Assembly (NCBI RefSeq): GCF_004010195.1
Contig: NC_057726.1
Location: 53,116,036 to 53,179,521 of the forward strand
Direction: 5' to 3'
DNA from: Chiloscyllium plagiosum
Lineage: Eukaryota
Length of the DNA stretch: 63,486 bases
Shown: positions 17,901-63,486 of the stretch, piece by piece
How the letters are laid out: each line of letters starts with the position of its first letter
How positions within the stretch are numbered: the first letter of the stretch is position 1
Made by a program: the position numbers and the translations under genes
Notes under the pieces: model-generated
The model's database searches: none
Seen by the model: the letters and a program-made list of their open reading frames with translations, nothing else
Told to the model about the DNA's origin: nothing

Positions 17901-19735
17901 ATAGGTCTTAAGGACTATACACATGAGCCTTTGGGCTGTGATCTATCAGTGACCAGTAGCCATGTGAGAGAGACTCTGTTTGAAGGCTGTAATAAGAGGA
18001 GCCTCGGACAGAGCAAGACCATTGTGTACTTTGTTAAAATTCACACAACACCAGGTTATAGTCCAACAGGTTTATTTGGAAGCACTAGCTTTCAGCGGTT
18101 CATCAACCACCTGATGAAGGAGCGGCCCTCCAAAAGCTAATGCTTCCAAATAAACCTATTGGACTATAACCTGGTTTTGTGTGATTTTTAACTTTGACAA
18201 CCTCAGTCCAACACCAGCTCCTCCACATCATTGTGTACATTGTGTTAATACACCCACTGTTTAAAGAATCACCTTGACATCTAGCTTGAACTTATCTGAA
18301 CATACAAACTCATACTAAGACAGCCTAGATTTCTTGTTTTCTTAAACATAATTGGATATTTGAGATTGGGAAAATAATCAAAGTAAATTCTATTGAGACA
18401 GGATTCGAAGAGGGACAGTGTAAAACTGGCACAAAGAATAATAACAATATCAAGAATATTCTTTTACTGTTTTAGATTATTTTAAAAACAGTTACTGATT
18501 TCAGTTTCTTACTTTTAAATTGAATCAACACAATCTTGAATGAGTCAACGAATGTAGTGCTGGAGAAGCACAGTTGGTCAGGCAGCATCCAAGAATCAGG
18601 AGATTCAACGTTATGAGCATAAGCTCTTCATCATTCCTGATGAAGAGCTTATGCTCATAACGTCGATTCTCCTGCTCCTTGGATGCTGCCTGACTGGCTG
18701 TGCTTTTCCAGTACCGCACTTTTGGACTCTGATCTCCAGCATCTGCAGTCCTCACCTTCTCCTACAATTTTGAGTCAGAGCATTCCTACCTTAGCAACTG
18801 AAATGGCCTGAGAATTTTGATCAGCTGTGCATTTGTTGTAATCTCCAATAATGACAAGGTGTCTTGTGCTACAAAAGAATGTCAGATTATTCAGTACATG
18901 TTGCTTTATATATTTAATGTAGTCTCTGGAGATGTTGACGTTCTAACCTTACCTCACACTGCAATGGGCAGCAGTGACAACCCAGTTTTCGTTAATCAAG
19001 GAGCCACCACAGAAATGAAAGCCAGTGTTTTGCTAATATAGAAAAGAAAGTTTGAATCACTCAAAGAAAATCTAATATTTGAACCATTATAGTTATGATT
19101 ATCTGCCTTGCAAGCATTAATCTTTGTAGTTTTAACAATGCTCAAAATATGAGTCAGCAGTACAATAGAAGTGTTCTATCATTGGTTCAGAGTTTAGCTT
19201 TCACAGGTATATACCTGTTTTGATCAAGTCATGCACAAGACCTTTGGTTCCTGGCAGCATTTTCCTATTGATGATGCACCATTTGTATTATCAACTTTAT
19301 GCAAAACATTATTTGTTTCCCTAGAATACATTCCTCGATGAAAATATAGGCAGAAATTCAATGCTGAATGAAATGAACACGGTTAAGGTTTGACCTTTTT
19401 ATAGAATGATGGCTTTTTTAATTGTGTACGTAATTTAACAGTTACCTGACTAGGAATTACTTAGACCTTAGCTACTAACCTGCAGGGAGACCTGCCATGG
19501 CCAAGATCCTGGAACAGCATTTTCACCATTCACAATTCTTGAATAGCCCGTGATGACTGGAGTGATGGCTGGGACTCCACAACCTATGTTGGAAGTCAAT
19601 GTACAAATAGAATCAATTTATCCAGCACAATTGCATATAAAATAGAAATAGACAATACTGTGTAGATATTAACTTACTCCGTCCATAAGCTGTGCCGAGG
19701 ATGGCCAGGCAAAAGAAAATCCAAAGGAATGCCAT
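14905..19735 (-). CDS. Chymotrypsinogen (CTRB/CTRL-like) copy 2, complete, 265 aa
   Basis: Seven GT-AG exons: 19735-19678, 19583-19480, 19032-18953, 18868-18790, 17517-17337, 15282-15149, 15066-14905 (58/104/80/79/181/134/162 bp = 798 nt, open frame to TAA). It has TAAHC (His57), YDITL (Asp102) and CMGDSGGP (Ser195), with Ser189/Gly216/Gly226 giving a chymotrypsin-type S1 pocket. CTRB versus CTRL orthology cannot be resolved by eye. Confidence 0.96.
18030..18228. mobile_element. Palindromic non-autonomous PLE-terminus insertion (family B) in intron 4 of copy 2
   Basis: 10-bp perfect TSD CATTGTGTAC (18020-18029 / 18229-18238). Inverted arms of about 60 bp surround a hammerhead-like core CTGATGA at 18111. 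Confidence 0.75.
18552..18760. mobile_element. Palindromic PLE-terminus insertion (family A) in intron 4 of copy 2
   Basis: Inverted arms of about 80 bp centred near 18635, with the same sequence as the PLE terminus linked to the GIY-YIG ORF at 31380-32130. Confidence 0.75.
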
Positions 19736-19770
19736 GGTTCTAGTTAGTATTTGAAGGCTACGGTTATGAC

Positions 19771-19799
19771 TTTATATAGTTGACAGATAAAAGTCTGAG
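19771..19799 (-). promoter_or_regulatory. Proximal promoter of chymotrypsinogen copy 2 (TATA + GATA block)
   Basis: TATATAAA on the minus strand at 19778-19771, about 36 nt upstream of the ATG. AGATAAAAGTCTGAG at 19785-19799. Confidence 0.6.
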
Positions 19800-20924
19800 T
19801 TTTCACCAAATTACGTGCAGTTGAATTTCTTCCAACGTAAACTAATTAATTGCAAGGTTTATAAATAAATAACCAAAAATATCTCTAAATTACAAAGAAC
19901 CTTGGGTACTTTCAGCTGTTCAATGAATAAAATATTGATGATTGATTTAAAGTCAAATGCACAACTGAGATATAATAGATACCCAAACAGATATGCAATC
20001 ACAGAACCTTGAAAAAGTTTCCATTATACTGTCCAGGAAAGAAATTCAAGTAATAGATTTTTTTTACAGGAATATTATGAAAGTAACTGATTAATAACCT
20101 CACATATTTCAAAATGTTCGGTAACATTTCAAGTTGTTACACAAAGTAATAATGATTACCACAAACTCGTTAATTTACTGAATGCAGAAAGAAAGACAAA
20201 AGAACATACAAAAGGGAATTGATTATGAAAAATGCATTAGGAAAGAGAATGACCTAGATTGTTGATATAAATATCTTCAGTCTTTTGAAAAATGTTTGTA
20301 GTAAATGAATTATTAGCCTTCTGAATTATTAGCCTCATCACTTTTGTTATTTAGGCAAAACTAGTTGTACGCAGCAAGATCCCACAAACAATGTTAATGC
20401 TGACCATTTTGTTGTTATGAAAGGCAAAATGTTTGTCTTTAAATGGTGCAGTTTAATCTCTTCCCTTCATCTAAATTTCCAAAATAAAAATGTCTATAGG
20501 CTTAAATCCCCAAGTTTCTAAATCATAGGTCAGTGTTACACAGATTCATACTGGTAACGGATAATAACAATTATAACATTAAAATGGTAAGAATGATACA
20601 TGACTTTTATGCTTTTAAATCTCTGTGATTGTATTGCCCAAGCCCTTTTTTGTCTACACAGCTCTGCAACTGCTCATAAATGTAGATGATGCTGACTTCC
20701 TGCCTTTAATGTGAATGAATGGCTCCTCACTTTTTCAGTTGTTAACTCACAGCCTGGTCAGGATCAGCAAGTGAGCAATCTGTGGATATGAGCTTCACTG
20801 TTATTGCAGGAATGGTTTTGAATGAGATCTTCATGAAATTCAGCAGAAGATTAATCTGATCTTCAGTGATCTGTGCAATGGGGAATTGGAGCAAACTGTT
20901 CAATTTGTACTGTAAATAATAGTC

Positions 20925-22235
20925 ATCTATTAATGATGGTATGGCAGTAGATATGGTGTACATGGATTTTAGCAAGGTGTTTGATAAGGTTCCCCATGGT
21001 AGGATCATTCAGAAAGTAAGGAGGCAGGGGATGCATGGAAATTCTGCTGTCTGGATACAGAATTGGTTGGCCCATAGAAGACAGAGGGTGGTAGTAGATG
21101 GAAAATATTCAGCCTGGAACTCGGTGACCAGTGGTGTTCTGCAAGGATCTGTTCTGGGACCTTTGCTCTTTGTGATTTTTATAAATGACTTGGACGAGGA
21201 AGTGAAAAGATGGCTTAGTAAGTTTGCCAATGACACAAATGTGATGGCGTGGTGGATAGTGTGGACGTCTGTTGTAGGTTGCAATGGGAAATTGACAGGA
21301 TGCAGAGCTGAGCTGATAAGTGGCAGAAGGGGTTCAACCTGGAAAAGTGTGAAGTGAAAGGTATTCTTGATGAAGGACTTTTGCCCGAAACGTTGACTTT
21401 GCTGCTCCTCGGATGCTGCCTGAACTGCTGTGCTTTTCCAGCACCACTCTAATCTAAAGTGTGAAATGATTCAGTTTGGAAAGTTGAATTTGAATGCAGG
21501 ATACAGGGTTAAAGGCAGGATGCTTGGCAGTGTGGAGGAATAGAGGGATATTGGGGTGTATGTCCATAGATTCCTCAAAGTTGCCACCCAAATTGATAGG
21601 GTTGTTAAAAAGGCATATGGTGTGTTGGCTTTCTTTAACATGGGAATTGAGTTTAAGAGCTGGGGGTGTAATGTTGCATCTCTATAAAACCCTGGTTAGA
21701 CCACACTTGAAATCTTGTGTTCAGTTCTGGTTGCCTCATTATAGGAAGGATGTGGAAGATTTAGAGAAGTTGCAGAGGAGATTTACCAGAATGCTGCCTA
21801 GACTGGGGGGTATATCTTATGAAGAAAGGTTGAGGGAGCTAAGGCATTTCTCATTGGAGCAAAGGAGGATGAGAGGCAACTTGTTGGAGGTGTACAAAAT
21901 AAGAAGACGCACAGATAACGTGAATAGTCAGAGACTTTTCCCCAGGGCAGAAATGGCTATCACAAAGGGGCACAATTTTAAGGTGATTGGAGGAAGATTT
22001 GCAGGAGAGGTCAGAGGTCGGCTCTACACATAGTGAGGTGGGTGTCTGGAATGCACTGCCAGTAGTGGTAATAGAGTCAAGTACATTAGGGACATTTAAG
22101 TAACTCTTGGATAAGCACATAGATGATATTGATTTGTCTGATATTGGAGAGGGAAGTGGGGGTGGGGGGTGGGGGTCAGCACAACATCGAGGGCCGGTGG
22201 GGGGGCCTGTGCTGTGCTATACTGTTCTATGTTTT
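20925..22235 (+). mobile_element. 5'-truncated CR1 LINE (RT to 3'UTR) with a 98-bp PLE insert
   Basis: VYMDFSKVFDKVPH, SGVLQGSVLGPLLFVIFINDL and KFANDT RT motifs. The insert 21358-21455 is flanked by a near-perfect 14-bp TSD AAAGTGTGAA(G/A)TGA. Confidence 0.9.
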
Positions 22236-23179: not shown

Positions 23180-25290
23180 GGTTCCCCATGGGAGACTGGT
23201 TAGCAAGATTTAGATCTCACAGGGAGAACTAGCCATTTGGATACAGAACTAGCTCAAAAGTAGAAGACAGAGGGTGGTGGTGGAGAGCTGTTTTTCACAC
23301 TGGAGGCCTGTGACCAGTGGAGTGCCATAAGGATTGGTGCTGGGTCCTCTACTTTTTGTCATTTATATAAATGATTTGGATGTGAGCATAAGAGGTATAG
23401 TTAGTAAGTTTGCAGATGACACCAAATTTGGAGGTGTAATGGACAGCGAAGACGGTTACCTCAGATTACAACAGAATCTTGATCAGATGGGCCAATGGGC
23501 CAAGAAGTGGCAGATGGAGTTTAATTCAGATAAATGCGAGGTGCTGCATTTTGGGAAAGCAAATCTTAGCAGGACTTATACACTTAATGGTAAGGTCCTA
23601 GTGAGTAATGCTGAACAAAGACACTTGAAGTACAGGTTCATAGCTTCTTGAAAGTGAAGTCGCAGGTAGCTAGGATAGTGAAGAAGGCGTTTGGTATGCT
23701 TTCTTTTATCAGTCAGAGTATTGAGTACAGGGGTTGGGAGGTCATGTTGCAGCTGTACAGGACATTGGTTGGGCCACTGTTGGAATGTTGCGTGCAATTC
23801 TGATCTCCTTTCTGTCAGAAAGATGTTGTGAAACTTGAAAGGGTTCAGAAAAGATTTACAAGGATTTCGCCAGGTGGACGATTTGAGCTATAGGGAGAGG
23901 CTGAGCAGGCTGGGGCTGTTTTCCCTGGAGCATCGGAGTCTGGGGGCCGACCTTATAGAGGTTTACAGAATTATGAGGGGCATGGATAGGATAAATAGAC
24001 AAAGTCTTTTCCCTGGGATTGGGGAGTCCAGAATTAGAGGGCATAGGTTTAGGGTGAGAGGGGAAAGATATAAAAGAGACCCATGGGGAAACTTTTTCAC
24101 ACAGAGGGTAGTACATGTATGGAATGAGCTGCCAGAGGAAGTGGTGGAGGCTGGTACAATTGCAACAGTTAAAAGGCATTTGAATGGATATATGAATAGG
24201 AAGGATTTGGAGGGATCGGGGCAGGGTGCTGGCAGGTGGGACTAGATTGTGTTGGGACATTTGGTCGGCATGGACAGGTTGAAGGGCTTTTGTCCGAAAT
24301 GTCGATTTTCCTGCTCCTCGGATGCTGCCTGCCTTCTGTGCTTTTCCAGCACCACTCTGATCTAAACAAAGGTTGGATTGAAGGGTCTGTTTCCATGCTG
24401 TGCATCTCTATGACTCTATGACAAGCGGATGGTGAGACTAACTATCAGAGACTAAATCTGATCACAATCTGTGTGTTGGAGACAATGGTCCTACACATAT
24501 ATACAGACAGACAGAGACAAATAAGAGAAACTTTGGTCTTATGGGTGGAGGGAAACATATTGTTAACACAGTTCAATAGCACCAGTTTGCACAGTTTGAT
24601 GCTGCACAGGACATTTGTTAGACCACTATTGGAATACTGTATGCAATTCTGGCCTCCCTGTTATAGAAAGGATGTTACTTGAAATATGGGAGGAAACTGG
24701 AGCACCCAGAGGAAACCCATGCAGACACAAGGAGAACGTGCAAACTCCACACAGACAGTCGCCCGAGGTTGGAATCAAACCCAGGTTCCTGGTGCTGTGG
24801 TGCTGAAAGTGTTCAGAAAATATTTACAAGGATGTTGCCAGTGTTGGAGGGGTGGATTTATAGGGAGAGGCTGAATAAGCTGGGGCTGTTTTCCCTGGAG
24901 TATCAGAGGCTCAGGGGTGACTTCATAGAGGTTTATAAAATCATGAGGGGCATGGTTAGGGTAAATAGACAAGGCCTTTGCACTGGGTTGAGGGAATCCA
25001 AAGCTAGAGGGCATAAGTTTAAGGTGAGAAGGGAAAGATTTAAAGGGACCTAAGAGGTAACTTTTTCATGCAGAGCATGGTGCATGTATGGAATGAGCTG
25101 CCAGAGGAAGTGGTGGATGCTGGTATAATTACAACATTTAAAAGGCATCTGGATGGGTATATGCATAGGAAGGGTTTAGAGGGATATGGGCCAAATGATG
25201 GCAAAAGGGACTAGATTAGGTTAGGATATCTGATCAGCATGGACAAGTTGGACTAAAAGGGTCTGTTTCTGTGCTATATATCTCCATGGC
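23180..25290 (+). mobile_element. Two adjacent 5'-truncated CR1 LINEs (23180-24420; 24590-25290)
   Basis: VLGPLLFVIYINDLD...SKFADDTK RT motifs and two CR1 3'UTRs. A PLE piece sits at about 24280-24363 and a V-SINE piece at about 24680-24805. Confidence 0.9.
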
Positions 25291-25750: not shown

Positions 25751-26182
25751 CGTGTTCAGACCTTGGAGGCCTGCCCAGCCAGAAAGAAACTTAGCAGAAC
25801 ACCAGCATTTGATGTACTAATTACAGTCTTACAACAACCAATGGGAGAAATGCTACATTTCATGCAAATATCTTATTTCACAATATAAAAGATAAAAAAA
25901 GAGCAAATAAAGCCAGTGAGCTGAGGGCACAGATAGCCACAATGGCACAATGATATTATTGCTATAAGAGAAACTTGATTTAAAGAATCATAAAGATGAC
26001 AGATCCATGACCCTGAAAATAAAGCTGTCGAGCAGAATGAGGAAGGGCACATGTTGGCAAATTTCTGAGTGCAAACTCAATAGGGCAGTAATAGTTTGTG
26101 ACTTCAATGATGCAGATATCAACTGATGTGTGAAACTGTGTGAAAGGCACAAAGGGCACAAATTCTTGAACTGCATTCAAGA

Positions 26183-26215
26183 ACATTTTCGGTCCTGTGA
26201 CCCCTCCTCAGAACT
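26183..26215 (-). ncRNA. Hammerhead ribozyme core (PLE family D)
   Basis: AGUU-CUGAGGA-GG-GGUC-ACAG-GACC-GAAA. Sister copies at about 27475 (+), 36545 (+), 29800-29830 (-) and 56617-56655 (-) end in GAAA-NN-UU-AAC(U), restoring stem I AGUU/AACU. Confidence 0.55.
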
Positions 26216-27570
26216 GATGGTAGCTAGGAAAAGGTTTTTTTTGTGTAGAAGATAGGGTGAGGGGGAGTGGTTAAGGAATAAAAGATAAGTGGGTATAGAG
26301 CTTAAAGAGAGAGAAGAACAGTTAGACAGACAAAGGAGTGGATAACGATCTGGGTAGGAGGGTGAATAGCTGTTAATAGAGACTCTTAGTGGCTAACAAT
26401 GGCTTTTATGCAATAGCAAACCAAGGTGGGGGCATAGGACATAGGAGAGTGTTTCTGTTTCTGGGGATGGAACTGGCCACTACTATCTACTATAAACCCA
26501 TCGACTCCCACAGTCGCCTGAACTATAGATCTTTGCAGCCTGCTTCCTGTAAAGACTCTATTCCATTCTCCCAGTTTCTCTGTCTCCACCACATATGTTC
26601 CAATTATGCCAACTTCGACAAGGGAGCCTGCGAAATGTTCACCTTGTTCCTGAACCAAAGATTCCCCAGCACCATTGTTGACAGGGCTCTCATCATGGTC
26701 CAATGAGATGCCACCACCAGACTCATATTCCCCTCCCCATCTTGTCCGCCTTCCAAGGGACCATTCCCTCTGGGACACCCTGGTCCATTCCTCCTTCACT
26801 CCCAACACGGCCGCACCCCCCCCCCCCCCCCCCCCCCCACTCTCTCCACACACAGCCCCACAGCACCTTCTCCTGCAACCATCTTAGGTGTAATACCTGC
26901 CCATTAACCTCCTCCCTTCTCCCTCTTCTGTAACCAAGGGCCCAAACATACCTTGCAGGTGAAGCAGCATGTCATACAGTTGAGTCTACTGCATTTGCTG
27001 CTCACAGTATGGTCTCCTTGACATTGGGGAAATGAAGTGTAGACTGGGTGAGCGCTTTGCAGAACATCTACATTCTGTCTGCAAAAATGACGCTAAGCTT
27101 CTAGTTGACTACCATCCTGTTCCCTGGCCAACATCTCTATCTCAGGCTTGCTGCAGTGTTCCAGTGAAGCTTAGTGTAAGCTGGAAGAACAACACCTCAC
27201 TTTCCACTTGGAGACTGTAGCCTTCTGGACTCAATGTCGAGTTCAATAACTTTAGGGTTTGCGCTCTCCTATATCCTAGCCTCCACCCCCGCATATCAAA
27301 CCTAGTGATCACATAGTCCACGATTACACACAACCCATTGTTAGCCTCTAACAGTCTCCATTAACAGCTATTCACCCTCCTGGGCTGGTTGTTATGCACT
27401 CCTTGTCTGTCTAACAGTTCTTCTCATTCTTTGGGCTTTAGCCCCACCGACCGTTTACTCCTTAACCCCTCCCCCTGAGGAACGGTCACCAGACTGGAAA
27501 AGTTAACTCTGATTTCTCTTCACAGATGCTACCAGACCCTGCTGAGTTTTTCCAGCAATTTCTGTTTTTG
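26187..27570 (+). mobile_element. Penelope-like element (family D), truncated, with inverted 5' terminal repeat
   Basis: RT thumb YYKPIDSHSRLNY...CKDSIPFSQFL and GIY-YIG remnant RLGERFAEH on +. Segment 26187-26400 is an inverted copy of the 3' repeat at about 27330-27510. Confidence 0.8.
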
Positions 27571-28860
27571 TTGGCATAATTGGGAACTTTGCACATGACA
27601 TAAAAATTGGCCATGTAGCTTGTAGTGAAATAACAGCCGTTGATTGCAGGATGAAATCAATGGTTTGGTTGAGTAGACTGAAAAGTGGCAATGAAATAAA
27701 ATCCAGAGAGGTCTGAGGTTATATCTTGGGGATGGCACACAGAACAAGGAAATACACAATAAATGGAGGGTATTGAGAGGGATGTAGGAAGTGGGAGACC
27801 TTGGAGTGTTTGACTACAACAGTAAAAATGTAATGCTGGAACAATGTAAAACACTGGCTAGGCCACAGAACTGTGTACAGTTTTGGTGGTGTTACAGGAA
27901 GGGCATACTATAGGAAAGATACCGAGGCTTTGGAAGGGTGCAAAGAAGGTTTACCAGGATGCTGCCTGGACTGGGGGGCTTGCCTAATGCAGAAAGGCTG
28001 AATAAGCTTGGACTTTTCTCTCTGGAAAGAAGGAGGAAGAGAGGAGACCTGATCGAATTATACAAGGTAATGAGAGGAATAGATAGAGTCAATAGCCAGC
28101 GACTTTTCCCCAGGACAGGATTGACTGGTACAAGGGGTCGTGGTTTTAAGATATTGGGAGAAAGGTATAGAGGAGACATCAGAGGTATGTTCTTTACGCA
28201 GAGAGTTGTGAATGCATGGAATGAATGCGGTAGTGGTGGAAGCAGAGTCATTAGGGACATTTATGCAACTGCTAGACATGCACATGGATAGCAGTGAGTT
28301 GAGGGGTGCGTAGATTAAGTTATTATATTTTACATTAGGATTAAACCTCGGCACAACATCGTGGGCCTAAAGGCCTGTTCTGTGCTGTACGTTTCTATGT
28401 TCTATGACAGAATTGCTCTTGAGAGAGTGCAGAAGAGATTTGCAAGAATGTTATCAGGTCTTGAAAACTGCAGCAGTGACGAAAGATTGGATACACTAGG
28501 GTTATTTTTCCTTCAAACAGAGGGTGTAAGGAGTGACTTAATTGAGGTGTACAAAATGATGAGACACAGTGGACAGGGATGACTTGTTTCTCCTAGTGGA
28601 AAAGTCATAGATTTAAAAGAGATTTCTGGAAAGATTAGAGGTGACATGAAGAAAATCTTTTCCACCCAGAGGGTGTGAGTCTGGTATTTGCCTCAGAAAC
28701 TCTCAACTCATTTAAAAAGAGCCTGAATCCATACCTGAAGTGCTGGAACCTGCAAGGTTACAGTCGAAGTGCTGGAGAGTAGGATTAGAATGAGCGGCTA
28801 GTTTATTCAATCAGCACAGAAAGGATAGGCTGAATGGACTCTTCCTGTACTGCATCTTTT
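27570..28860 (+). mobile_element. Nested CR1 3' fragments
   Basis: QRRFTRMLPGL...[16 protein letters not shown] (ORF 27938-28291) lies inside an older CR1. Confidence 0.8.
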
Positions 28861-29244: not shown

Positions 29245-29275
29245 TTATCTTTCACCATATGTTTCTGTTACACAA

Positions 29276-32200
29276 TCAGTTAGTGGCAATGGTCTCATCA
29301 ATCCATCCTCTGAGTTCAGTTACACGGGCGTAGACCCCAGGTATGGAGGTGGAGCAGGAGCTACTGCCCCAAGAAACAATACCAACCAGATTCCAGGCAT
29401 TATCCTTCTGACAGACAAGAGGCCCACCAGAGTCACCCTGTAAATGAGATGAAGTTAGCGCTTTTAGTTTTAGTTTTATTTTATAATTGAAGCAAGCTTA
29501 AAATACCTTGCAGGAGGTACATACCATGCAAGACGATGCACCTGAGGCACCAGCACAAATCATGATGTCTGTGATCTTGTTACCCCAGTACTGTTTACAC
29601 TGAGCATTGGTAAGGAGAGGGAGCATTGCTTGCTGTAGTGTATCTGGGCGCTCAGGAGCTGCAAGTAAATAAGGTGATATATGATTCAATCGTTTGTTAT
29701 AATTTGTCTATGCTTTAATCCTTTAATGGTTACAATGGTTGTAAGAAGTACAAAGCACGGAGAATGGTGGAGAAATCTGTGGAGGGAGAAGGAGCGTCAA
29801 CATTTCGAGTTAGCATGGCTTCTTCAGAACTGATAAAAGTTGGGGTGTAAAGCATATTTGTTTTCAGACGATTGAGGCTGAATAGAATGATTTGCAATTT
29901 GTTCCTGGGTTCTCCTAGCAACAGGGTTTGCTTATCTCCATATTTGGCTTCCTGAGCATAACTTACTCATTATAACAAATCACGTTGCAGCTGTACAGGA
30001 CATTGGTTAGGCCACTTTTGGAATATTGCAGGCAATTCTGGTCTCTTTCCTAACGGAAAGATGTTGTGAAACTTGAAAAGGTTCAGAAAAGATTTATAAC
30101 AGTGTTGCCAGGGTTGGAGGATTTGAGCTATAGGGAGAGGTTGAATAGGCTAGGGCTGTTTTCCCTGGAGCGTTGGAGGCTGAGGGGTTTATAAAATTAT
30201 GAGGGGCATGGATAGGATAAATGGACAAAGTCTTTTCCCTGGGGTGGGGAAGTCCAGAACTAGAGGGCATAACTTTAGGGTGAGAAGGGAAAGATGGGCG
30301 GCACGGTGGCACAGTGGTTAGCACTGCTGCCTCGCAACGCCAGAGACCCGGGTTCAATTCCCGACTCAGGCGACTGACTGTGTGGAGTTTGCACGTTCTC
30401 CCCGTGTCTGCGTGGGTTTCCTCCGGGGGCACCGGTTTCCTCCCACAGTCCAAAGATGTGCAAGTCAGGTGAATTGGCCATGCTAAATTGCCCGTAGTGT
30501 TAGGTAAAGGGGTAAATGTAGCGGTATGGGTGGGTTACACTTTGGCGGGTCGGTGTGGACTTGTTGGGCCGAAGGGCCTGTTTCCACACTGTAAGTAATC
30601 TAATCTAATCTAATTATATAAAAAAGACCTAAGGGGTAGGGAGTGGTATATGTACGGAATGAGCTGACAAAGGAAGTGATGGAAGTTAGTACAATTGCAA
30701 CATTTAAAATGCATCTGGATGGGTATATGAATAGGAAGGGTTTGGAGGGATATGGGCCAGGTACTGGCAATTGGGACTAGATTAGATTGGGATATCTGGT
30801 TGGCATGGATGAGTTGGACTGAAGGGTCTGCTGTACATCTCTATGACTCTATTAGACCAATTTGAATAACAATTTCCTGTGATACCACAATATTATTGTA
30901 ATACTAGAGGGAGATAATGATATGGTAGTAGTGACCCCGAACTAATAATATATTGGCCCAGACTAGTGCACTGAGAATATGAGGCGAAAATGAGGACTGC
31001 AGATGCTGGAGATCAAAGTCAAGATTAGAGTGGTGCTGGAAAAGCACAGCAGGTCAGGCAGCATCTGAGGAGCAGGAAAATCGATGTTTCGGGCAAAAGC
31101 CCTTCATCAGGAATTCCTGAAGAAGGACTTTTGCCTGAAATGTCGATCTTCCTGCTACTTGGCATATGAGTTTAATTCCCACCGCAGTAGCTAGTGGAAT
31201 TAAATTTCACTAATTTTGACTATGAAGCTACCATTGATTGTTATAAAAATCTATTTTGTTAATTAACCTTCTTCTGGGAACTCTTTTGTTTTACATTACA
31301 GTACAGTACAGGCTCTTTGGCCCCTTAATGTTGGGCCGACCTGTGAAACCAATCTGAAGCCCATCTAACCTACACTATTCTGGATCAGTGGTGCTGGAAG
31401 AGCACAGCAATTCAGGCAGCATCCGACGAGCAGCAAAATCGACGTTTCGGGCAAAAGCACTTCATCAGGAATAAAGGCAGAGAGCCTGAAGCGTGGAGAG
31501 ATAAGCTAGAGGAGGGTGGGGGTGGGGAGAAAGTAGCATAGAGTACAATAGGTGAATGGGGGAGGAGATGAAGGTGATAGGTCAGGGAGGAGAGGGTGGA
31601 GTGGATAGGTGGAAAAGGAGCTAGGCAGGTCGGACAAGTCCGGACAGGTCAAGGGGACAGTGTGGAGCTGGAAGTTTGAAACTAGGATGATGTGGGGGAA
31701 GGGGAAATGAGGAAGCTGTTGAAGTCCACATTGATGCCCTGGGGTTGAAGTGTTCCGAGGCAGAAGATGAGGCATTCTTCCTCCAGGTGTCTGGTGGTGA
31801 GGGAGCGGCGGTGAAGGAGGCCCAGGACCTCCATGTCCTCGGCAGAGTGGGAGGGGGAGTTGAAATGTTGGGCCACGGGGCGGTGTGGTTGATTGGTGCG
31901 CGTGTTTCGGAGATGTTCCCTAAAGCACTCTGCTAGGAGGCGCCCAGTCTCCCCAATGTAGAGGAGACCGCATCGGGAGCAACGGATACAATAAATGATA
32001 TTAGTGGATGTGCAGGTAAAACTTTGATGGATGCGGAAGGCTGCAGGTAAAACTTTGATGGATGTGGAAGGCTGCAGGTAAAACTTTGATGAGCAGAGCG
32101 CTTTAGGGGTATCCGTTGCTCCCGATGCGGTCTCCTCTACAGGGTTGGAGGAACAACCTCTCCAACAACCAGTAGGAACTAAGCCCTCACCTGTCAATAC

Positions 32201-38200: not shown

Positions 38201-38435
38201 CAGCTTCTTCACCATTGACAATTCGAGCATAGCCTGTGACAACAGGGGAGATAGCAGGAGTGCCACAGCCTAAAATCCAGGTAGAAACAAGCAGTTATTA
38301 CAATTTTGCATTATCGACTGTATCCAAACCAATATCTTTAATGCCAATGACCATTTCGAGAAATTGGTTTAAAACAGGATTACCATAACTGGCTCCTATG
38401 AAAGCAAAGCAGGAGAGAAACCAGAAGAACGCCAT
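29276..38435 (-). CDS. Chymotrypsinogen (CTRB/CTRL-like) copy 3, complete, 264 aa
   Basis: Seven GT-AG exons: 38435-38384, 38269-38166, 36378-36299, 36017-35936, 32806-32626, 29658-29525, 29437-29276 (52/104/80/82/181/134/162 bp = 795 nt, open frame to TGA). Protein runs [48 protein letters not shown]...TAAHC...YDVAV...GASSCMGDSGGP...TIATN, with intact triad and Ser189. Confidence 0.96.
29983..30850 (+). mobile_element. CR1 3' fragment containing a full-length HE1-type V-SINE (30296-30613)
   Basis: CR1 RT C-terminus and 3'UTR, interrupted by GGGCGGCACGGTGGCACAGTGG...GGTTCAATTCC...(TAATC)n. Confidence 0.9.
30984..31163. mobile_element. Palindromic PLE-terminus insertion (family A) in intron 5 of copy 3
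   Basis: 7-bp TSD ATATGAG (30977-30983 / 31164-31170). The inverted repeat is centred on GAATTC 31111-31116, with a hammerhead core on each strand. Confidence 0.8.
31380..32140 (-). mobile_element. Penelope-like element (family A, Neptune-like) 3' part: GIY-YIG endonuclease plus terminal repeat
   Basis: ORF 31682-32197 contains [36 protein letters not shown]...VAQHFN...H...[14 protein letters not shown], a GIY-YIG endonuclease with a CxxC...H...H zinc motif. Confidence 0.9.
31437..31472 (-). ncRNA. Hammerhead ribozyme core (PLE family A) downstream of the GIY-YIG ORF
   Basis: CUGAUGA-A-GUGC-UUUU-GCCC-GAAA-CG-UC on the same strand as the endonuclease ORF, with one stem II mismatch. Confidence 0.6.
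33010..35210. mobile_element. CR1 LINE: ORF1 (SGNH/GDSL esterase) and APE on +, inverted ORF2 piece on - (about 34670-35195)
   Basis: [10 protein letters not shown]...[11 protein letters not shown]...IGTND...LHLNWK (CR1 ORF1 esterase), CIYFNARGL (APE), and [12 protein letters not shown]...[12 protein letters not shown] on the minus strand. Confidence 0.88.
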
Positions 38436-49009: not shown

Positions 49010-50925
49010 CCCTAGGACGTTGTGAGATGCTACCGAGGAAATTGTGAGGCCCCTTGCAGAAATATTTGTGTCATATATAACTACAGGTGAGGTGCTGGAT
49101 GACTGTAGAGTGGCTGCTGTTGTGCCTTTATTCAAGAAAGGATGTAAGGAGAAGCCTGGGAACTGTAGATCTGTGAGTAAGTTGTTAGAAGTGATTCTGA
49201 AAGATAGAATTTACGTACATTTGAAGAGGCAAGGATTGATTAGATATAGTCAGCACGGCTGTGTGTGAGGGAACTCATGTCACACAAACTTGATTGAGTT
49301 TTTTGAGGAAGTAACCAAGAAGATTAATGAGGGCAGAGCAATGGACATTTTTTAACTTGGACTTTAGTAAAGCCTTTGACAAGGTTCTGCATGTTAGTCT
49401 AATTAGTAAAGTTTGATCAGATTGGATTCTGGGTGAGCTTGCCAATTGGATACAATATTGGCTTAATGGCAGGAGACAGAGAGTGGTGATGGAAGCTTAT
49501 TTTTTGGATTGGTGGCCTGTTACCAGCAGTGTTCCACAGGGATCAGTACAGTCCACTTTTGTTTGTCATTTATATATGAATATAGAAGGCATGGTTAGTA
49601 AGTTTAAGTATGACACCAAAATTGGTGGTATAGTGGACAATGAAGAAGGATAGGAATTGGGACATCATGTTGAGGTTGTACAGGACATTGGTGAGGCCTC
49701 TCCTGCAGTATTGTCTCCAGTTCTGGTTGCCCAGTTATAGAAAGGATATTATTAAGCTGAAGAAGGCTCTGAAAAGATTTACCAGCATGTTTCCAGGAAT
49801 GGATGGTTTGAGTTATAAGCAGAGACTTGATAGGCTGGGACTTATTTCATTGGAGCATAAGAGGTTGAGGAGCAACCTTATAGCGGTTTATAAAATGATT
49901 AGAGGTATGGATAAGGTGGCACGTCACGGTGGCTCAGTGGTTAGCACTGCTGCCTCACAAGACCAGGGTCCCAGCTTTGATTCCAGCCTCAGGTGACTGT
50001 CTGTGTGGAGTTTGCGCATTCTTCCTGGGCTTCCTCTGGGTGCTCCAGTTTCCTCCCACAGTCCAAAGATGTGCAGGTCAGGTGAATTGGCCATGCTAAA
50101 TTGCCCATAGTGTTAGGTGTATTAGTCAAAGGGAAATGGGTCTGGGTGGGTTGCTCTTTGGAGGGTCGGTGTGGACTGGTTGGGCCGAAGGGCCTGTTTC
50201 CATACTTTAGGGAATCTAATATAAGGTGATTGGCATGTGTCTTTTCCCCAGGTTTGTGGATTTCAAGATGAAAGAATATATTTTTAAGCTGAGAGGGAAA
50301 GATTGAAAAAATACGTGAGGGGTAACATATTTACACAGAGAGTGGTTTGTATGTGGAATGAACTTCCAAAGGAATTGGTCAATGTGGGTACAGTTACAAC
50401 ATTTAAAAAACGTTTTGGGAAGTACATGAATAAGAAATTATCTGGAGGGATATGGGCCAGGAGCAGGCAAGTAGGACTAGTTTAGTTTGAGATTATGGTG
50501 GCATTGGACTGTTTAGACCTAAGGTAAAAAGGTAAAAACAAGGTAACAATGATTCCTGATGAAGGGCTTTTGCCCGAAACGTCGATTTTGCCTGTCCTCG
50601 GATGCTGCCTGAATTGCTGTGCTCTTCCAGCACCACTGATCCAGAATCTGGTTTCCAGCATCTGCAGTCATTGTTTTTACCTTGTTGATTTTAACCCTAC
50701 TGCGAATCCTCTTGCAAGGATGCCTGCCTTGAAGAAGTTTTCCTCCTCTCTCTACAAGAATCTCAGGGAGTCTCTCTCCCACTGCAACTCCCAGGTCATT
50801 TCCTCTGCCCTGAAGCTCTTCAACCATGTCCTGAAACAAACCCGCTACTACAGCCACATTTGCTTCCTCAGTGTTTAGACCGAAGGGTCTGTTTCCATGC
50901 TGTATGACTCTATGACGCTATGAGT
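49010..50925 (+). mobile_element. CR1 LINE fragment with a V-SINE (49919-50220) and a PLE insert (50520-50871)
   Basis: VPLFKKG...DFSKAFDK RT motifs. SINE TSD ATAAGGTG (49911-8 / 50221-8). PLE TSD TGTTTAGACC (50510-9 / 50872-81). Confidence 0.88.
50551..50588 (+). ncRNA. Minimal type-I hammerhead ribozyme (PLE family A), intact core
   Basis: CUGAUGA-A-GGGC-UUUU-GCCC-GAAA-CG-UC at 50556-50583. Palindromic ACGU stem III, and a short stem I GAUUC/GAUUU with one U-U. Confidence 0.7.
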
Positions 50926-52774: not shown

Positions 52775-55370
52775 GAGTCATAGAATCCTACAGCATGGAG
52801 ACAGGGCCTTGCTGACCAAAATGCCCATCAATATTAACCCCAATTCCTTGTACTTGGCCCATATCCTTCTAAACCTTTCCTATCCATGTTTTTGTTCAAA
52901 TGCCTTTTAAATGTTGTTAACATATCCGCTTCAACCACTTTCACTGGCAGTTCATTCCATATGCATACTATCCTCTGTGTAAAAAAGTTGCCCTCAGGTT
53001 CCCTTTTATTTTTCCCCTCTCACCTTAAACTGATGCCCTCTGGTCCTCGATTCCCCAACCCTGGGAAAGAAAATTGAGTGCATTCACCTTATCCATGCCT
53101 CTAATGATCTTATACACTCTACACAATGCCCCCTTAGACTCCTAACCTCTTAAAAAGCAAGTTCTAGCTTGTCCAACCTCTCCCTATAACTCGGACTGTT
53201 GAGATCTGGCAACATCCTTGTAAATTTCTTCTGCACTCTTTCCAGTTTAATAACATTATTCCTATAACAAGGTGACCAAAACTGAAGATAATACTCCAAG
53301 TGCAGCCTCACCAACGTCCTGTACAACTTCAACATAACTTCCCAACTTCTATCCTCAATGCCCTGGCTGATGAAGGCCAATGTTTCAAAAGCCTTCTTCA
53401 CTGCCCTGTCTACTTGTGACTCCACTTTCAGGGAACCGTACATCTGAACTCCAAGGTCCCTCTCTTCCACTACACTCCTTAAGGCCCTACCATTCACCAT
53501 GAAACTCCTACCTTGATTTGACTTTCCAAAATGAAAGACCTCATACTTAACTATATTAAACTCCATTTGCCATTTCTTGGCCCACTTCCCCAGCTGATCA
53601 AGGTCCTGCTGCAATTTATGATAACCTTCCCCACTATCCATGACACCACCTATTTTAGTGTCATCTGCAAACTTACTAATTATGCCTTGTATATTCTCAT
53701 CCAAATCATTGATATAGATAGCAAACAGCAATGGGCCCAGCACCGACCCTGAGGCACTCCACTAGTCCGACAAGCATCCTTCCACTATTACCCTCTGCTT
53801 CCTACCATCAAGCCAATTGTATATCCAATTTGCCAGCTCGCCCTGGATTCCATGCTATCTAACCTTCCAGAGCAGCCTACCATGTAGAACCTTATCAAAG
53901 GCCTTACTGAAATACATACAGAGTACATCTACCACCCTGCCCTCACCCCACCCACCCCGTCAACCTTCCTGGTCACATCATCAAAGAATTCTAACAAATT
54001 TGTGAGGTATGATCTCCCATGCACAAAGCTGACTATTCCTAATCAAACCCTGTCTTTCCAAATGCATGTATATCTTATCCCTCAGAATCTTCTCAAGTAA
54101 CTTACCCACCACAAATGTTGGGCTTACTGGTCTGTAGTGAGTCCCAAGTTTATCTTTGCAGCCCTTCTTGAATGAGGGCAAAACATTCACAACATATCGA
54201 CCTTGAACTCTAGCTATCTCACTTTAAAAGGCCTCCCACTTGCCAGAGGTCCCTTTACCTGCAAACAAACTACTCCAATCAACCCTTAAAGCTCCTGCCT
54301 AATTCCATCAAATTTCGCCTTGCCTCAATTTAGAACTTGAACCCATGGGTTAGTTTTGTCCCTCTCCATAACTATTTTAAAATGAATATAACTATGGTCA
54401 CTGGTCCCAAAATGCTCTCCCACTGTCACCTCCATCACGTGTCCTGCCCTATTTCCCAAGAGTAAGTCGAGGTTTGCCCCTTCCCCCGAGTTAGACCCTC
54501 TATGTACTGTTTGAGGAAACTTTCCTGAACGCACTGAGAAAATTCCACCTTAACGACGGCAGTCCCAGTCTATGTTGGAACTTTGAAATCCCCCACTATG
54601 ACAACCCTATTGTTCCTGCAAGTGTCCCCAATCTCCCTGTATATTTGATTTGGTGTTGGATTGGGGTGTACAAAGTTTAAAATCTGCGTCTTACAATCTA
54701 ATACTCCATAACGACCTGATGAAGAAGCAGGGTCCAAAAGCTGGTGCGCCCAAATAAACCTGTTGGACTATAACTTGGTGTTGTGTGATTTTTAACCTTG
54801 TATATTTGTTCCACTAATTCCCCTCGATATTTGGGGGCCTATAATACAACCCCAATAATGTCACCATCCCCTTCTTATTTTTTAGCTCCACCTACAAAGC
54901 CTCACTGGAATATTCTTCAGTTATTTCATCTCTGATTACTGCTGTGATATTTGCCTTAATTAAAACGCAACTCCCCCCTCCCTTCTTTCCACCACCTCTG
55001 TCCCACCTAAAGCACCTGTACCCTAGTACATTAAGTTGCCTGTCCTCTCCCTCCATTAGCCATGTTTCTGTAATGGCTATAATATCCCAGTCCCACATAT
55101 CTATCCATGCCAAGAGTTCATCAGCCTCACCTGTCAGCCATCTTGCATTGAAATATAAGTAGTTTAATCCAACAGGCATTCCTTGCTCCCTGTCGTGTTC
55201 TAGCCTGACCTGTCTCTTCGCTTCATTATTTCTGATTACTGTGTCTCCTTCCAGTCTCACATTTGCCTCCCTGCTGTTGAGGATCCCACCACCACCACCA
55301 ATCCAGTTTAAACCCTTCCTTGTAGCACTAGCACAGCTGGCTGCCAAGATATTGGTTCTCCCTCCAGTTC
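52775..55370 (-). mobile_element. CR1 LINE ORF2 (APE + RT + 3'UTR), disrupted, with a family-B PLE insert at 54648-54798
   Basis: ORF 53150-53743 LGPLLFAIYINDLD...SKFADDTK and ORF 54892-55347 YFNAR...IIAITETW. Insert TSD TGTATATTTG (54638-47 / 54799-808). Confidence 0.9.
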
Positions 55371-56269: not shown

Positions 56270-58006
56270 CTAAATCTTGCCCTGGTGACAGCTGTTACCA
56301 ATTGTTCTGCAGTAACAAATTGCGTTGAAAAACCTGCAGTAGCAAATAGCACATGGATCACAGCAAGGTAGTGCATGACCAAAACAGGACTCCAATTGCC
56401 GGACACATCTCCTGGGTGAACGTTCTGCTCTGTCCTTCTCCACAGCACTGGATATTGCCTGCAAGATTAAATACAAAGATTAGGAAAGCCCAGCTGCATA
56501 CCAATTTTTTACATTGCAATACTGAAGCAACTGATTACATTTAACAGTTCAACACATACAATATACAGCCCATAGAACGCAACAGGTCTGGTAGCATCTG
56601 TGGAGACAGGAACAGGGTTAACATTTCTAGTCCAGTTTGACTCTTCTTCAGAATTGGGACAGGATCTACGAAGACAGGCAGAAAAATCCTCAGTTTAAGA
56701 AAGCACCTCCAACAATGCAGCACTCCCTCATTCCTGCACTGGAGTGTTAAGCCTTGATTTTAGGCTCAATCCTGAAATGGGATTGAACCAATATCATTAT
56801 GATTCGTTGGTTAGCATAACAGAAGAATTTCTTGACACCTCCCTCTTACTCTCTTGGAATTATGAAATGTCTAAACTTATCTGTAATAATTTTTGAACTA
56901 CCATACTGTACAGTAGTAAGTCATATATTCTGCTTGATACATGAAAATTACAGTTACCTCAGGATCCAGCATGATTTTGTTTGATATATCATCCTCCTTA
57001 ACCATGTCCATTGCTTTGTTGAGTGCAGGTCTGACCAGTGAACCTGGTGATAGAATCATTTGTAAAACTGTTAACACAAGGCGAGGTATTGAAACATTCA
57101 ACTTTGATTTGCTAAATTAGAAAGACTCTTACTAACAATGATGACTCTTACAAATCTTTTTTTTTCTTTAGCTGAACAGGTATAAATAAAATAACAAGAG
57201 CTAGATCACAGAAGAGTCTTTGGATCATCATCTTCCCAACAGAATATTGGGAGGAGCGATTAAGAAGAATAATTGGGAAAGCATAAACCCAAACTGAGAG
57301 AGAGCCAGAGAAAAATCATAGAATCAAAAATACTTTACAAAATCAGAAAAAAAGAGAGAGGGGAAGAGACAAATATCCAACTGAGAGTAAAAACCTAGAT
57401 GATTCACCAACTGTTAAATTATGGGCTGGTTATCAGTTCATATTATGAAGTTAATACTGTTCAAAGTAATACAGATTTAATGTTGAAAACAGATTGTAAA
57501 GTTAGAGATCCAAGCATATTGTATATTGCAACTGTCTCCCCACCTGCAAGCCATGAGGAGGTCTGTGAAATTACAAACACATAGGGCTTTATGTTCATTT
57601 TCTTCTGTTTAAAAACCATGCTTCATATCACCAAAAGTCAATACTTGGGCCACCTTCCAGTCCCCCACTGGAGCCAGGAATACAATCACTATTCTGGGTT
57701 CCTTATATTACAGGTAATTCCACTATGACAGCTCAGTTGTGGTCTAACTGCCAGATATTTACTCACTTGAACAATCTACCTCAAAGTCAACCCGAGTCAG
57801 TGGAGCATTAAGACATATTATTAAAACACACCTGAGGCAGACAGTAGGGTCTTGATCCTGCTCAAAACAGCGAGGTCAGTGTGGGAGACCACATCCTGCA
57901 CTGAGCTGGAATCCTGTGCATGCTCTACTATTCTGCTGGGAACAGAGGCGAGAACGATCGGAACCATCTGAAGAATCCAGTAGCACAGTAACAGTGTTTT
58001 AAACAT
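56270..58006 (-). CDS. agrp: Agouti-related protein (AgRP1 type), 149 aa
   Basis: Coding exons 58006-57832 (175 bp, phase 1), 57043-56958 (86 bp) and 56458-56270 (189 bp), all GT-AG, in frame. Signal peptide MFKTLLLCYWILQMVPIVLA, then RAER|SPRR convertase site, then the 10-Cys knot CVRQLESCFGHALPCCDPCAICYCRFFNAICYCRTIGNSC with the RFF triplet. An acceptor AG at 58012-58011 implies an upstream non-coding exon, which was not located. Confidence 0.95.
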
Positions 58007-60335: not shown

Positions 60336-61255
60336 GTTGTGGTTCTGTTCGCCAAGCTGGAAGTTTTTGTTGCAAACGTTTCACCCCCTGGCTAGGCGAC
60401 ATCATTAGTGCTTGGGAGCCTCCTGCGAAGCGCTTCTTTGATGTTTCCTCCGGTGTTTATAGTGGTCTGTCCCTGCCGCTTCCGGTTGTCAGTTTCAGCT
60501 GTCCACTGTAGTGGTTGGTATATTGGGTCCAGGTCGATGTGTTTGTTGATGGAGTTTGTGGATGAATGCCATGCCATGTGAATGGCATTCATCCACAAAC
60601 TCCATCAACAAACACATCGACCTGGACCCAATATACCAACCACTACAGCGGACAGCTGAAACTGACAACCGGAAGCGGCAGGGAAAGAGATGTATAGTAG
60701 TGTGGCTAGTCCTTTTGGTTGTGGTATGTCCTCGTTCCGTGGTCTTTCTCTTAAGCATCTATTGATGAAGTTGCGCGGGTATCCGTTTTTGGCGAATACC
60801 TTGTATAGGTGTTCCTCTTCTTCCTTTTGCAGTTCTGGTGTACTGCAGTGTGTTGTGGCCCTTTTGAATAGTGTCCGATTCACGAGAGAAGAAGAAAAGG
60901 ATAGCCAACTCCCATTCCTAGATGTGATGGTACAGAGAACACCGAACGGAGAATTCACTACAAGGGTATACAGGAAAGCCACACACACAGACCAAGTCCT
61001 AAACTATGAAAGTAACCACCCCAACACACACAAACGAAGCTGCATCAGGACACTATTCAAAAGGGCCACAACCGGAAGTGGCAGGGACAGACCACTATAA
61101 ACACCGGAGGAAACATCAAAGAAGCGCTTTGCAGGAGGCTCCCAAGCACTGATGATGTCGCCTAGCCAGGGGACGAAACGTTTGCAACAAAAACTTCCAG
61201 CTCGGTGATCAGAACCATACCAATGAGCACCCGAGCTACAAATCTTCGCACAAAC
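60336..61255. mobile_element. Rearranged Penelope-like element (family C, Penelope/Poseidon-like)
   Basis: 12-bp perfect TSD TTATGAAGTGTT (60324-35 / 61256-67). RT fragment FTREEEKDSQLPFLDV...VYRKATHTDQVLNYESNHP...KRSCIRTLFKRA, inverted terminal copies and an internal 103-bp hairpin. Confidence 0.88.
61146..61185 (+). ncRNA. Minimal type-I hammerhead ribozyme (PLE family C), intact core
   Basis: GCA-CUGAUGA-U-GUCGCCU-AGCC-AGGGGAC-GAAA-CG-UU-UGC: stem I GCA/UGC, 7-bp stem II with one mismatch, palindromic stem III. Confidence 0.7.
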
Positions 61256-63299
61256 TTATGAAGTGTTACAAGATATTACATTATATAAAATGTGCTATAT
61301 AAATACAATTTGTTGTTGTTTTGTGCAGAGATTTAAATTGAATCCCTCTGGTCAGATAATGAGAGTTCTACATGCCCACTGCAAGATTGCTGTTTAAACA
61401 AAATCCCCTTTTGCTCCATATTACTCTCATGGATACGGGTAATGCTTCTTCACTACTGCTACACAGTTGACATTGCAAAAAAACAGCAATTACCTGTACT
61501 GCTTTACCAGAGAGAACTAATGGCAGTATAAGTGTACCTTATTGAAGTCAAAGACTAATAGGTTTTTGAAAAGTCGGTAAATGAAAAGTTCACTGTTTTC
61601 TGAACAAAATAGCTTGACCAAACCATCTAAATTGAAAATGATCAAAAATCCATTTAGAACAGAAAAAGGAATTTGTTTTCTCCAGCATGCGACTGAAGTA
61701 GTTATTACAAATCAACATGGATATTTAAATGGTTGTTTATCACAAATATTCCTGTAAGGTACTTTGTTGCTTTTAGAAAAAGTCATTTTGAAAGCCATTA
61801 AGCAAAATGTTGAGGGTCTGATCCTATGATAACGTATATCTTGCCTGTTTCTATTTATTTCTCTATCACACACCATATACACATTGTGCTTTGTGTCAGG
61901 AATAATGGCAGCATCCTTGCAATAACATTTATTTTCCAGACCATTTCAGTCAGTTACAACGTACAATTTTTGGTTACTACTGTCATATGGTTGATTTAGA
62001 ATTCAAAATGGGCAAATATTAAACAGGATTTTAAAACATTTACATGGCTAGCATTGCCATTAGTGAGGGATTTTGTGGTATCTTATTAAACTCGCCTCGT
62101 TAACCTCTTGCCACATCCAACATCCACCCGATCTTACATGCACAGTTCCTGGAACACATCTCCAATCTAGTATATATCCCAGAATTCACTGGCAGCCCTT
62201 GCACCGGCACCATCTTTAAAAGCCCATTGTGCACCCAGACAAGCAACTTCACTCTAAGTTGGTCAGCACGGCTCCTTACACTCGGCCCAGATGTGACAAA
62301 GTTGGTGCCCAACTTTGCGGCAGGGTCTGGAGATCTGGACACCAAATTGGAATTCCTCTTTCCTGAGGACCAAGAGTTGAAGCCAAAACACTAGACTATG
62401 GCAGCCAAGTGTGACGTTGCTGCCCAAGTTAAAGCAGACTCAGCCACCTGACCTTCTCCATTCCAGCAGCATAAGATCCACCATCCTCTTTCCATTACCT
62501 CATCCTCTATGTTTACTACTGCACACACCTCCCACCAAGGCTAATATTCTACCATTCTCACCCACCCCAATCCCTGACATTACTGCATGCACTCTGCGCT
62601 CTCTACTTACTCACTCGGGACACATCCCCACCTGCACCAACAGTAATAGCTGTGCCATCCACTTTCATCTCCTGTAATATGAGCCTCTCCCTCATCCTAT
62701 GAGGAAAACAGCTCTAGTAGGGCAGAAAGAGTCAAGACAAATGGTGGGCTCACAATCTTTCAGTTTGTGATCCCTTATGAGGACTCTGACCTGCCTGAGT
62801 AGCACTTTGTCTGGAAGCCACCCTTGACTTACTGAGCCAGGACATCCAGAGCAAAGGCTAACCATTTACTTGATTGAGGACTGCTGATAACTATGACAAT
62901 CTTCCTGGCTCCATGCATAAAACAGCAAGGCACGACAGCAGTAACTTGAGCCTGGTACATCTGGCTAAGGGACCAAAGGCCAAAGGGCAAGGCAATGCTT
63001 TAGTAGGAATGCTGTGAGACTCCAGACAGGCTCAGAGTGAGTTAGCACTATGTCAGTGAGTTAAAGAGCATAGAGATTTATAGCTGTGTGCTTTCCTGAC
63101 GGATGAGTGATATTTAGTTGACCATTTTCCTGATTATGAAAGAATTCAACAGTGTGGCAATCAGCATTAAACACATTGGTTTTGCTGGTTGAAAATCCTC
63201 CACATCTTCCACTTTGGAGAACTTTCTCTAGTCCTGTTGGGACAACAAGATCACAATAGATATTAAGGCAGTACAAGTGAAGACATATTTACAAAAAGT

Positions 63300-63486
63300 A
63301 AAAAAGGTAAAAACAATGACTGCAGATGCTGGAAACCAGAGTCTAGATTAGAGTGGTGCTGGAAAAGCACAGCAGTTCAGGCAGCATCCGAGGAACAGTA
63401 AAATCAATGTTTCGGGAAAAAGCCCTTCATCAGGAATACAGGCAGAGATCCTGAAGGGTGGAGAGATAAATGAGAGGAGGGGTGGA
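63300..63486 (-). mobile_element. PLE family-A terminal repeat (runs off the window)
   Basis: Homologous to 31380-31530 and 50550-50685. Confidence 0.8.

Follow-up and report, generated by a model that had tools for sequence, protein, structure and literature searches.

Within a 63,486-nt stretch of the genome of the shark Chiloscyllium plagiosum (NCBI RefSeq assembly GCF_004010195.1, contig NC_057726.1, positions 53,116,036 to 53,179,521 of the forward strand; hereafter the window), an initial annotation had named 18 places as minimal hammerhead ribozymes belonging to four families, A–D, of Penelope-like elements (PLEs). The window also holds a tandem cluster of three minus-strand chymotrypsinogen-like genes (1–38435; the first gene starts at 1095) and, ∼18 kb upstream of this cluster, an agouti-related protein gene. 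Following up these motifs, we consider it highly probable that they are minimal type-I hammerheads in the end repeats (pseudo-long terminal repeats, pLTRs) of three Neptune-type and one Poseidon-type PLE family, with the scattered copies being likely inert passengers that are selected only in active parents. This reading follows from the position of the motif downstream of a GIY-YIG frame, from the short, head-to-head and target-site duplication (TSD)-flanked form of the copies, from neutral decay of the core and from 5′ ends that lie just before the core.

Hammerhead insertions and host genes in the window

A recognisable hammerhead relic was found at all 18 of the named places, several minus-strand sites having been quoted by their low end, such that 31083-, 31441- and 63406- are H17 of cores starting at 31110, 31468 and 63433, respectively. 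The count of more than 12 copies of the full pattern was, however, overstated, as CUGANGA...GAAA is kept at 10 of the 18 sites (26211, 27475, 29827, 31110, 31117, 31468, 50556, 56651, 61149 and 63433). Under a strict descriptor (the core, at least 3 contiguous pairs in stem II, Watson–Crick pairing at 15.2–16.2 and at least 2 pairs in stem I), two sites passed, 50556+ and 61149+, compared with none in 100 dinucleotide shuffles. Damage elsewhere includes G12A at 18111 and 54716, ATAA in place of GAAA at 18637, loss of the core through 5′ truncation at 24280 and 36545, and CpG decay of ACGU at 31110, 31117, 63433, 29827 and 56651. Once paired arms were merged, the 18 sites came to about 15 insertions: 31083/31117 and 60372/61149 each lie within a single TSD and represent one insertion apiece, and 26211/27475 was judged to be one by its layout, no duplication being found there. 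Two inverted partners, 18634- and 18103-, had been missed. TSDs of 7–12 bp were present at six of the nine insertions tested, the other three giving 5–6-base matches only. The insertions are as follows (those holding pieces in both orientations are given without strand):

50552..50587, plus strand: intact minimal hammerhead of family A, with C3 at 50556 and its predicted cut between 50583 and 50584 (GUC); stem I with two Watson–Crick pairs only, then U.U and A-U
50520..50871, plus strand: young Neptune-type PLE insertion, consisting of an inverted tail, the pLTR and the first part of the open reading frame (ORF); 10-bp TSDs (50510, 50872)
61146..61185, plus strand: family C minimal hammerhead (61149+), intact core; predicted cut between 61182 and 61183 (GUU); GCA/UGC as stem I and a G.G mismatch within stem II
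60336..61255: single rearranged Poseidon-type PLE insertion; 12-bp TSD; 60408- (G5A, broken), 61149+ and reverse transcriptase (RT) and endonuclease (EN) remnants
31380..32095, minus strand: 5′-truncated family A PLE with GIY-YIG remnant (31682–32095), 3′ untranslated region and hammerhead 31468-, whose core and stem III are preserved but whose stem II has a U.C mismatch; sense to chymotrypsinogen gene 3, in its intron 5
30984..31163: two family A copies head to head (31110-, 31117+) from a single insertion; 7-bp TSD; folding as one hairpin
18548..18770: two family A copies head to head (18637+, 18634-), of the GAGC/GCUC subfamily and each with a broken core; 7-bp TSD; within intron 4 of gene 2
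18030..18228: two family B copies head to head (18111+ with G12A; 18103- truncated); 10-bp TSD; likewise within intron 4 of gene 2
21354..21455, plus strand: solo family A pLTR with C3U at site 21367; 10-bp TSD; intergenic
24280..24356, plus strand: intergenic stub of family A, cut short within the core
26180..27575: old PLE of family D, made up of an inverted piece carrying 26211-, remnants of the RT thumb and of GIY-YIG, and the degenerate hammerhead 27475+
29770..29832, minus strand: within intron 5 of gene 3, a degenerate D-like relic (29827-) that the profile search did not pick up at E 1e-3
36543..36640, plus strand: family D stub without CUGA; antisense, intron 2 of gene 3
44007..44124, minus strand: old family A copy, GAGC subfamily, broken core
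54711..54798, plus strand: family B copy, G12A, H17 changed to G
56576..56655, minus strand: degenerate copy of family D, sense to the agouti-related protein gene and located in its last intron
63295..63437, minus strand: solo family A pLTR, stem III decayed to ACAU

At two places a reading frame meets the ribozyme. A frame of 116 codons (50528–50878) is open from upstream of the hammerhead across the pLTR into the start of the PLE ORF, and at 61149–61165, as at a further locus (L084), the family C endonuclease frame enters the ribozyme and stops inside stem II. A scan against Rfam (E ≤ 1) returned no hammerhead family; what it gave were weak miRNA-type hits on the inverted pairs and a single long non-coding RNA match (E=0.87). 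The window is also rich in non-LTR reverse-transcriptase remnants (Pfam RVT_1 at 20923–21357, 46227–46832 and 53150–53761), and some hammerhead insertions lie inside such repeats. The frame at 3237–3566, which we take to resemble a piece of a Harbinger-type transposase nuclease, gave no Pfam match.

The host genes that carry named sites are:

14905..19735, minus strand: gene 2, chymotrypsinogen-like, 7 coding exons
29276..38435, minus strand: gene 3, chymotrypsinogen-like, 7 coding exons
56273–58078, minus strand: agouti-related protein gene, 3 coding exons; site 56651 in an intron

One exon of the last is 100 % identical over 45 residues to the C. plagiosum agouti-related protein. The original statement that several copies sit in introns holds, as seven named sites (18111, 18637, 36545, 31441, 31117, 31083 and 29826) are intronic in two of the chymotrypsinogen-like genes, which are presumably highly expressed in pancreas, as would be expected of their gene family; no RNA sequencing run was listed with gene 3 exons. 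A role in these hosts was not borne out, with three of the seven sites being sense to the gene and only 31468- among these having an intact core and stem III; neither of the two fully intact copies (50556+ and 61149+) falls within a chymotrypsinogen gene. Repeats make up most of the ∼3-kb intron 5 of gene 3. Nothing found points to a role of the motifs in digestive-enzyme genes, and their consequence for the host genes of the window is little.

Ribozyme architecture and parent elements

For comparison beyond the window, we used a sample of 80 evenly spaced 10-kb stretches (771,222 non-N bases) of the 3.56-Gb genome. The core CUGANGA, GAAA and UH, with an extra nucleotide after A9, is present in the family founders and in 44 sampled copies, G10.1-C11.1 is the commonest or founder closing pair of stem II in all four families, and stem III is palindromic and loopless throughout (ACGU in A, C and D; AGCU in B), just as the annotation had described its self-complementary tetramer. 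Stem II varies by family (GGGC/GCCC, GGAGC/GCUCC, GGGUC/GACCC and GUC.CCU/AGG.GAC), as does stem I (AUUC/GAAU, CAC/GUG, GCA/UGC and AGUU/AACU), the latter being 4 bp in D and in the GAAU subfamily of A, 3 bp in B and C, and 2 bp followed by U.U and one further pair in the commonest A subfamilies (52 U.U vs 10 U-A). The stem II sequences first quoted were read correctly, but their kept pairing fails for GUCGCCU/AGGGGAC, which contains a G.G mismatch.

Covariation among copies, as had been proposed for stem II, was not seen: within families nearly all changes are one-sided decay, with two-sided changes setting apart a small number of subfamily or family founders. Pair 10.2 changes from G-C to A-U in 3 of 88 family A copies (Fisher p 0.01) and is A-U in 12 and G-C in 9 family D copies, whilst most other within-family stem changes break the pair or leave G-U. 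The compensatory changes, as read from these alignments, reflect selection on founders, between families and subfamilies, not among copies; such changes between PLE hammerhead families have already been described (PMC4209133). A MAFFT cross-family alignment was set aside for covariation, as it was not faithful to structure.

Each family's motif was found downstream of a PLE reading frame, which upholds the assignment to PLE pLTRs. In family A it adjoins the endonuclease frame in all 13 element copies among those listed, lying ∼200 nt after the GIY-YIG frame with the element ending up to ∼130 nt past the core, and across sample and window endonuclease matches mostly have the matching family's motif downstream. 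The pLTR placement of the family B motif comes from 2 loci, one of which has a (CA)-rich spacer of several hundred nucleotides; long (CA)-rich spacers between the family B ORF and ribozyme were also observed at loci L150, L153 and L167.

One family A locus encodes 441 residues covering RT, linker and endonuclease, and the YIDD motif of RT was seen in this family only. A CX4CXXC linker is present in A (CHRRNCKTC), B (CYGRHCKTC) and D (CNCSRCKTC), with none in C; a CX2-5CXXC linker between RT and GIY-YIG marks Neptune/Nematis elements (PMC8557442). Families A, B and D accordingly show the RT, linker and C-terminal GIY-YIG of Neptune/Nematis-type PLEs, and C the GIY-YIG domain without zinc-finger linker of the Penelope/Poseidon type. 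Relative to A, the family D frame is 49 % identical over 134 residues, that of B 27 % over 248 residues and that of C 31 % over 72 residues; the pLTRs of A and D also share 76 % over 50 nt, which contradicts the earlier view of four unrelated lineages. By these comparisons A and D are sister Neptune-type branches, B is a distant Neptune-type family and C is Poseidon-type, the names following the linker marker, which leaves Neptune and Nematis unseparated; this gives three lineages in all, one of them with two sister branches. Recurring CUGACGA or UUGACAAAGGGUCAG heads were noted at six loci (L141, L164, L185, L207, L210 and L167), and these variants hint at additional old subfamilies, possibly including one whose core is altered.

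Abundance, decay and origin of the copies

The genome-wide number of motifs is very large, as anticipated, both by k-mer counts and by the sample. The sample contained 44 strict-descriptor matches compared with 0 in 5 shuffles, and a total of 193 copies that span the motif (A 104, B 42, D 38, C 9), from which we extrapolate ∼196,000 (142,000–263,000) intact and ∼858,000 motif-spanning copies. A family A 28-mer has 18,175 exact copies in the genome (control 0) and a degenerate 29-mer built on three A subfamilies occurs 127,132 times; scaling from the sample predicted 120,000 for the 29-mer and 31,000 for the 28-mer. With 15.9 copies expected, the window is not enriched (P 0.33). To call this a ribozyme population nevertheless goes too far, as the descriptor rejects ∼77 % of the copies in the sample and decay of the core is neutral.

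The decay test used only copies spanning the profile (A 91/132, B 41/51, D 34/55), with control positions chosen as invariant among subfamilies; family C, with 6 full sampled copies, was too small. Non-CpG core differences were 3.7 % vs 3.6 % at control positions in A (33/887 vs 80/2230; 33 observed, 30.1 expected), 4.4 % vs 5.5 % in B (18/407 vs 69/1262) and 11.8 % vs 7.9 % in D. CpG positions differed at 18 % (A), 34 % (B) and 43 % (D); G12 is one of them, as are the two central bases of stem III in A and D. No conservation of the core after insertion was therefore detected in the sampled copies of A, B and D, and the bulk of copies lack the core conservation beyond neutral expectation that would characterize a domesticated intronic hammerhead of the RECK type. 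By this measure the window copies behave as neutral relics that decay like the surrounding DNA.

Copies begin 0–13 nt before C3 in 61/132 family A and 30/51 family B matches, with peaks at 4 and 0 nt, and the per-base rate of such ends is 6× (A) and 10× (B) that inside and after the core. Two foreign purines just ahead of ATTC are carried by 8,439 genome copies, or ∼10 % of an estimated 80,000 core-exact copies (from 18 in the sample) before any correction. A scan of genome DNA, made without the youngest and GAAU subfamilies, gave no clear junction spike at +1. As 5′ ends lie mostly before the core and not at the cut site (∼1 %, much like the position next to it), templates are likely to have been uncut RNA, in line with PMC11167929. 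Under this reading, reverse transcription would start ∼100–130 nt downstream of the motif and run to the RNA 5′ end at the start of stem I, which is probably the pLTR transcription start, on a template that had presumably not cleaved itself. By analogy with published work on other PLEs, the parent ribozyme may cut weakly, as a dimer through its palindromic ACGU/AGCU stem III, probably with help from the PLE protein and at another step of the cycle.

Several observations weigh against this passenger reading. No intact full-length parent was found, at least 13 of the 15 regions fetched for long frames being assembly gaps. The figure of 61/132 overcounts, as the upstream parts of some old subfamilies are not represented in the sample and their copies look truncated, and the profiles used for decay were partly seeded from that same sample. 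In family D the core has changed more than its control would imply (40 vs 26 expected), an excess that neutrality by itself would not produce and that we read as subfamily mixing. Finally, the cut-site junction pattern occurs in 1,421 of 127,132 anchor copies (17/30 checked loci true), ∼1.5× the +2 position (693 pattern matches, 24/30 true) and several times the -4 position (163 matches, 28/30 true, for a pattern that needs two intact CpGs); the +5 control position gave 891 matches as a raw pattern count. Most cut-site junctions are microhomology joins to an inverted partner, but a small cleaved fraction could still be present among the templates.

An alternative that we regard as a serious contender, although at somewhat below even chances, is that the 5′ pile-up marks not a transcription start but a reverse-transcriptase stall or a microhomology-guided template switch at CCUGA/UCAGG and stem I. 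This would account for the spread of ends across 14 nt and for the 22/61 (A) and 14/30 (B) such ends that are joined to an inverted partner, often by short microhomology. It sits poorly with the finding that A and B both peak 4 nt and 0 nt before C3 despite unlike flanks, and with a modest excess of G at the junction (35 G vs 26 A among the 100 matches listed, p 0.008) that plain flanks do not share (5 G vs 4 A). As to a cap-derived G at 5′ junctions, the outcome was mixed, with 13/39 in A (p 0.23) and 8/16 in B (p 0.04). If the ends do reflect a transcription start, one might tentatively go further and propose that the PLE template has its 5′ end, rather than a cut end, at the hammerhead. Reverse transcription in two distant shark families would then end at stem I on uncut RNA, yielding hundreds of thousands of ∼130-nt ribozyme-headed mini-elements; as stem I is weakened (2 pairs and U.U) in the most successful subfamilies, the fold may serve more as a start-site or protein-binding signal than as a cutter.

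It is rather doubtful that the ∼130-nt solo pLTRs propagate themselves as non-autonomous elements resembling short interspersed elements (SINEs), re-copied by PLE protein from their own start site and protein-binding tail. Copies are indeed mostly short with clustered 5′ ends and shared 3′ ends, and very young identical copies exist, but the young solo ones agree with the pLTRs of elements that have an ORF, no parentless subfamily was shown and family D has few intact copies.

Still less probable, and in our view very unlikely, is that dispersed intact copies, for instance 31468- in its chymotrypsinogen intron, are working ribozymes that cut host pre-mRNA or read-through RNA and so tune expression. 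Some ∼200,000 copies pass the descriptor, 19 of the 193 in the sample lie within 1 kb of a same-family copy on the same strand, and about 2 % of a single-cell run yields 841 polyA RNA reads of the family A element, on both strands; a second run contributed no reads and so says nothing either way. That the core decays neutrally speaks against such a function, however, as does the lack of any pile of read starts or ends on family A, albeit weakly, since reads come from many copies and fragmented libraries show cut ends poorly. Moreover, 76 of the 193 copies have an opposite-strand partner within 1 kb, and three inverted pairs of the window, when folded, formed long hairpins of -67 to -128 kcal/mol with the core buried; 31468- itself has a mismatched stem II, and its neighbour a broken stem III. 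Double-hammerhead dimers lay 11–28 kcal/mol above the best dimer fold in all seven cases tested, in energies that ignore core tertiary contacts. The intronic head-to-head pairs at 18545–18725, 18030–18200 and 31025–31165 form long, nearly perfect hairpins, and opposite-strand pairs in general are a possible large source of double-stranded RNA for editing or small RNAs. The idea that the matches arose by chance or do not derive from ribozymes, for which the lack of an Rfam hammerhead could be cited, has a negligible probability given the 0 matches in 100 shuffles of the window and in 5 of the 771-kb sample (vs 2 and 44) and stems I, II and III that differ in sequence by family yet pair.

Comparison with known hammerhead-bearing elements

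The initial annotation thus correctly caught a known feature, but overstated its intactness and independence. The hammerhead kind itself was already known from PLEs; new here are how numerous it is, the test for neutral decay and a 5′ boundary located at stem I. Judging by the title of their paper, Lunse, Weinberg and Breaker have reportedly described small hammerheads of PLEs whose cleavage takes place in dimers. Dimer cleavage through a very short stem III is also noted in a review (PMC6765202), whilst for a Schistosoma motif the monomer is given as inactive and dimer activity as low (PMC4209133). No literature on shark PLE hammerheads was found, most subscription papers lying outside the search; two of the three supplementary files of PMC4209133 hold no shark term, and the third, like the supplements of a bioRxiv report on retrozymes considered below, may list shark examples.

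The closest likeness is to the minimal hammerheads that metazoan PLE pLTRs carry (Cervera and De la Pena 2014, PMC4209133; here and for the other reports, as far as the accessible text goes), which share the core CUGANGA-N-stem II-GAAA-NN-UH with the extra nucleotide after A9, G10.1-C11.1 and a palindromic 15.2-16.2 without loop 3, and which occur in Neptune and Poseidon PLEs of fishes, mostly solo with some inverted pairs. The stems are shorter in the shark, with stem I of 2–4 bp and stem II of 4–5 bp in A, B and D, compared with 4–5 and 7–8 bp in the Schistosoma families.

In PAc, a Poseidon element of Anolis (Frangieh et al. 2024, PMC11167929), there is likewise a pLTR hammerhead and an internal reverse-transcription start that gives a tail, uncut RNA is the main template and no RNA-seq ends fall at the cut site; family C is also Poseidon-type. 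The PAc ORF starts at stem II, whereas the first body ATG of family A lies ∼165 nt after C3, and cleavage of PAc has been assayed, requiring protein in vitro, whereas the shark motifs are known from sequence alone. Animal non-LTR retrozymes (bioRxiv 10.64898/2026.07.22.740005; one chondrichthyan sampled) similarly carry type I hammerheads linked to PLE pLTRs, but they are head-to-tail tandem repeats. No such head-to-tail units were found in the window, where copies are solo or inverted, and in the sample head-to-head partners outnumber same-strand ones (76 vs 19 of 193).

Intact copies also differ in number, with ∼200,000 here against ∼4,000 in coelacanth and ∼9,000 in Xenopus (PMC4209133), counts that were made with differing descriptors. 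An intact count so far above these published ones, spread over natural stem I variants of 4, 3 and 2 pairs, makes this genome well suited to asking what PLE hammerheads do, and whether cutting matters for transposition.

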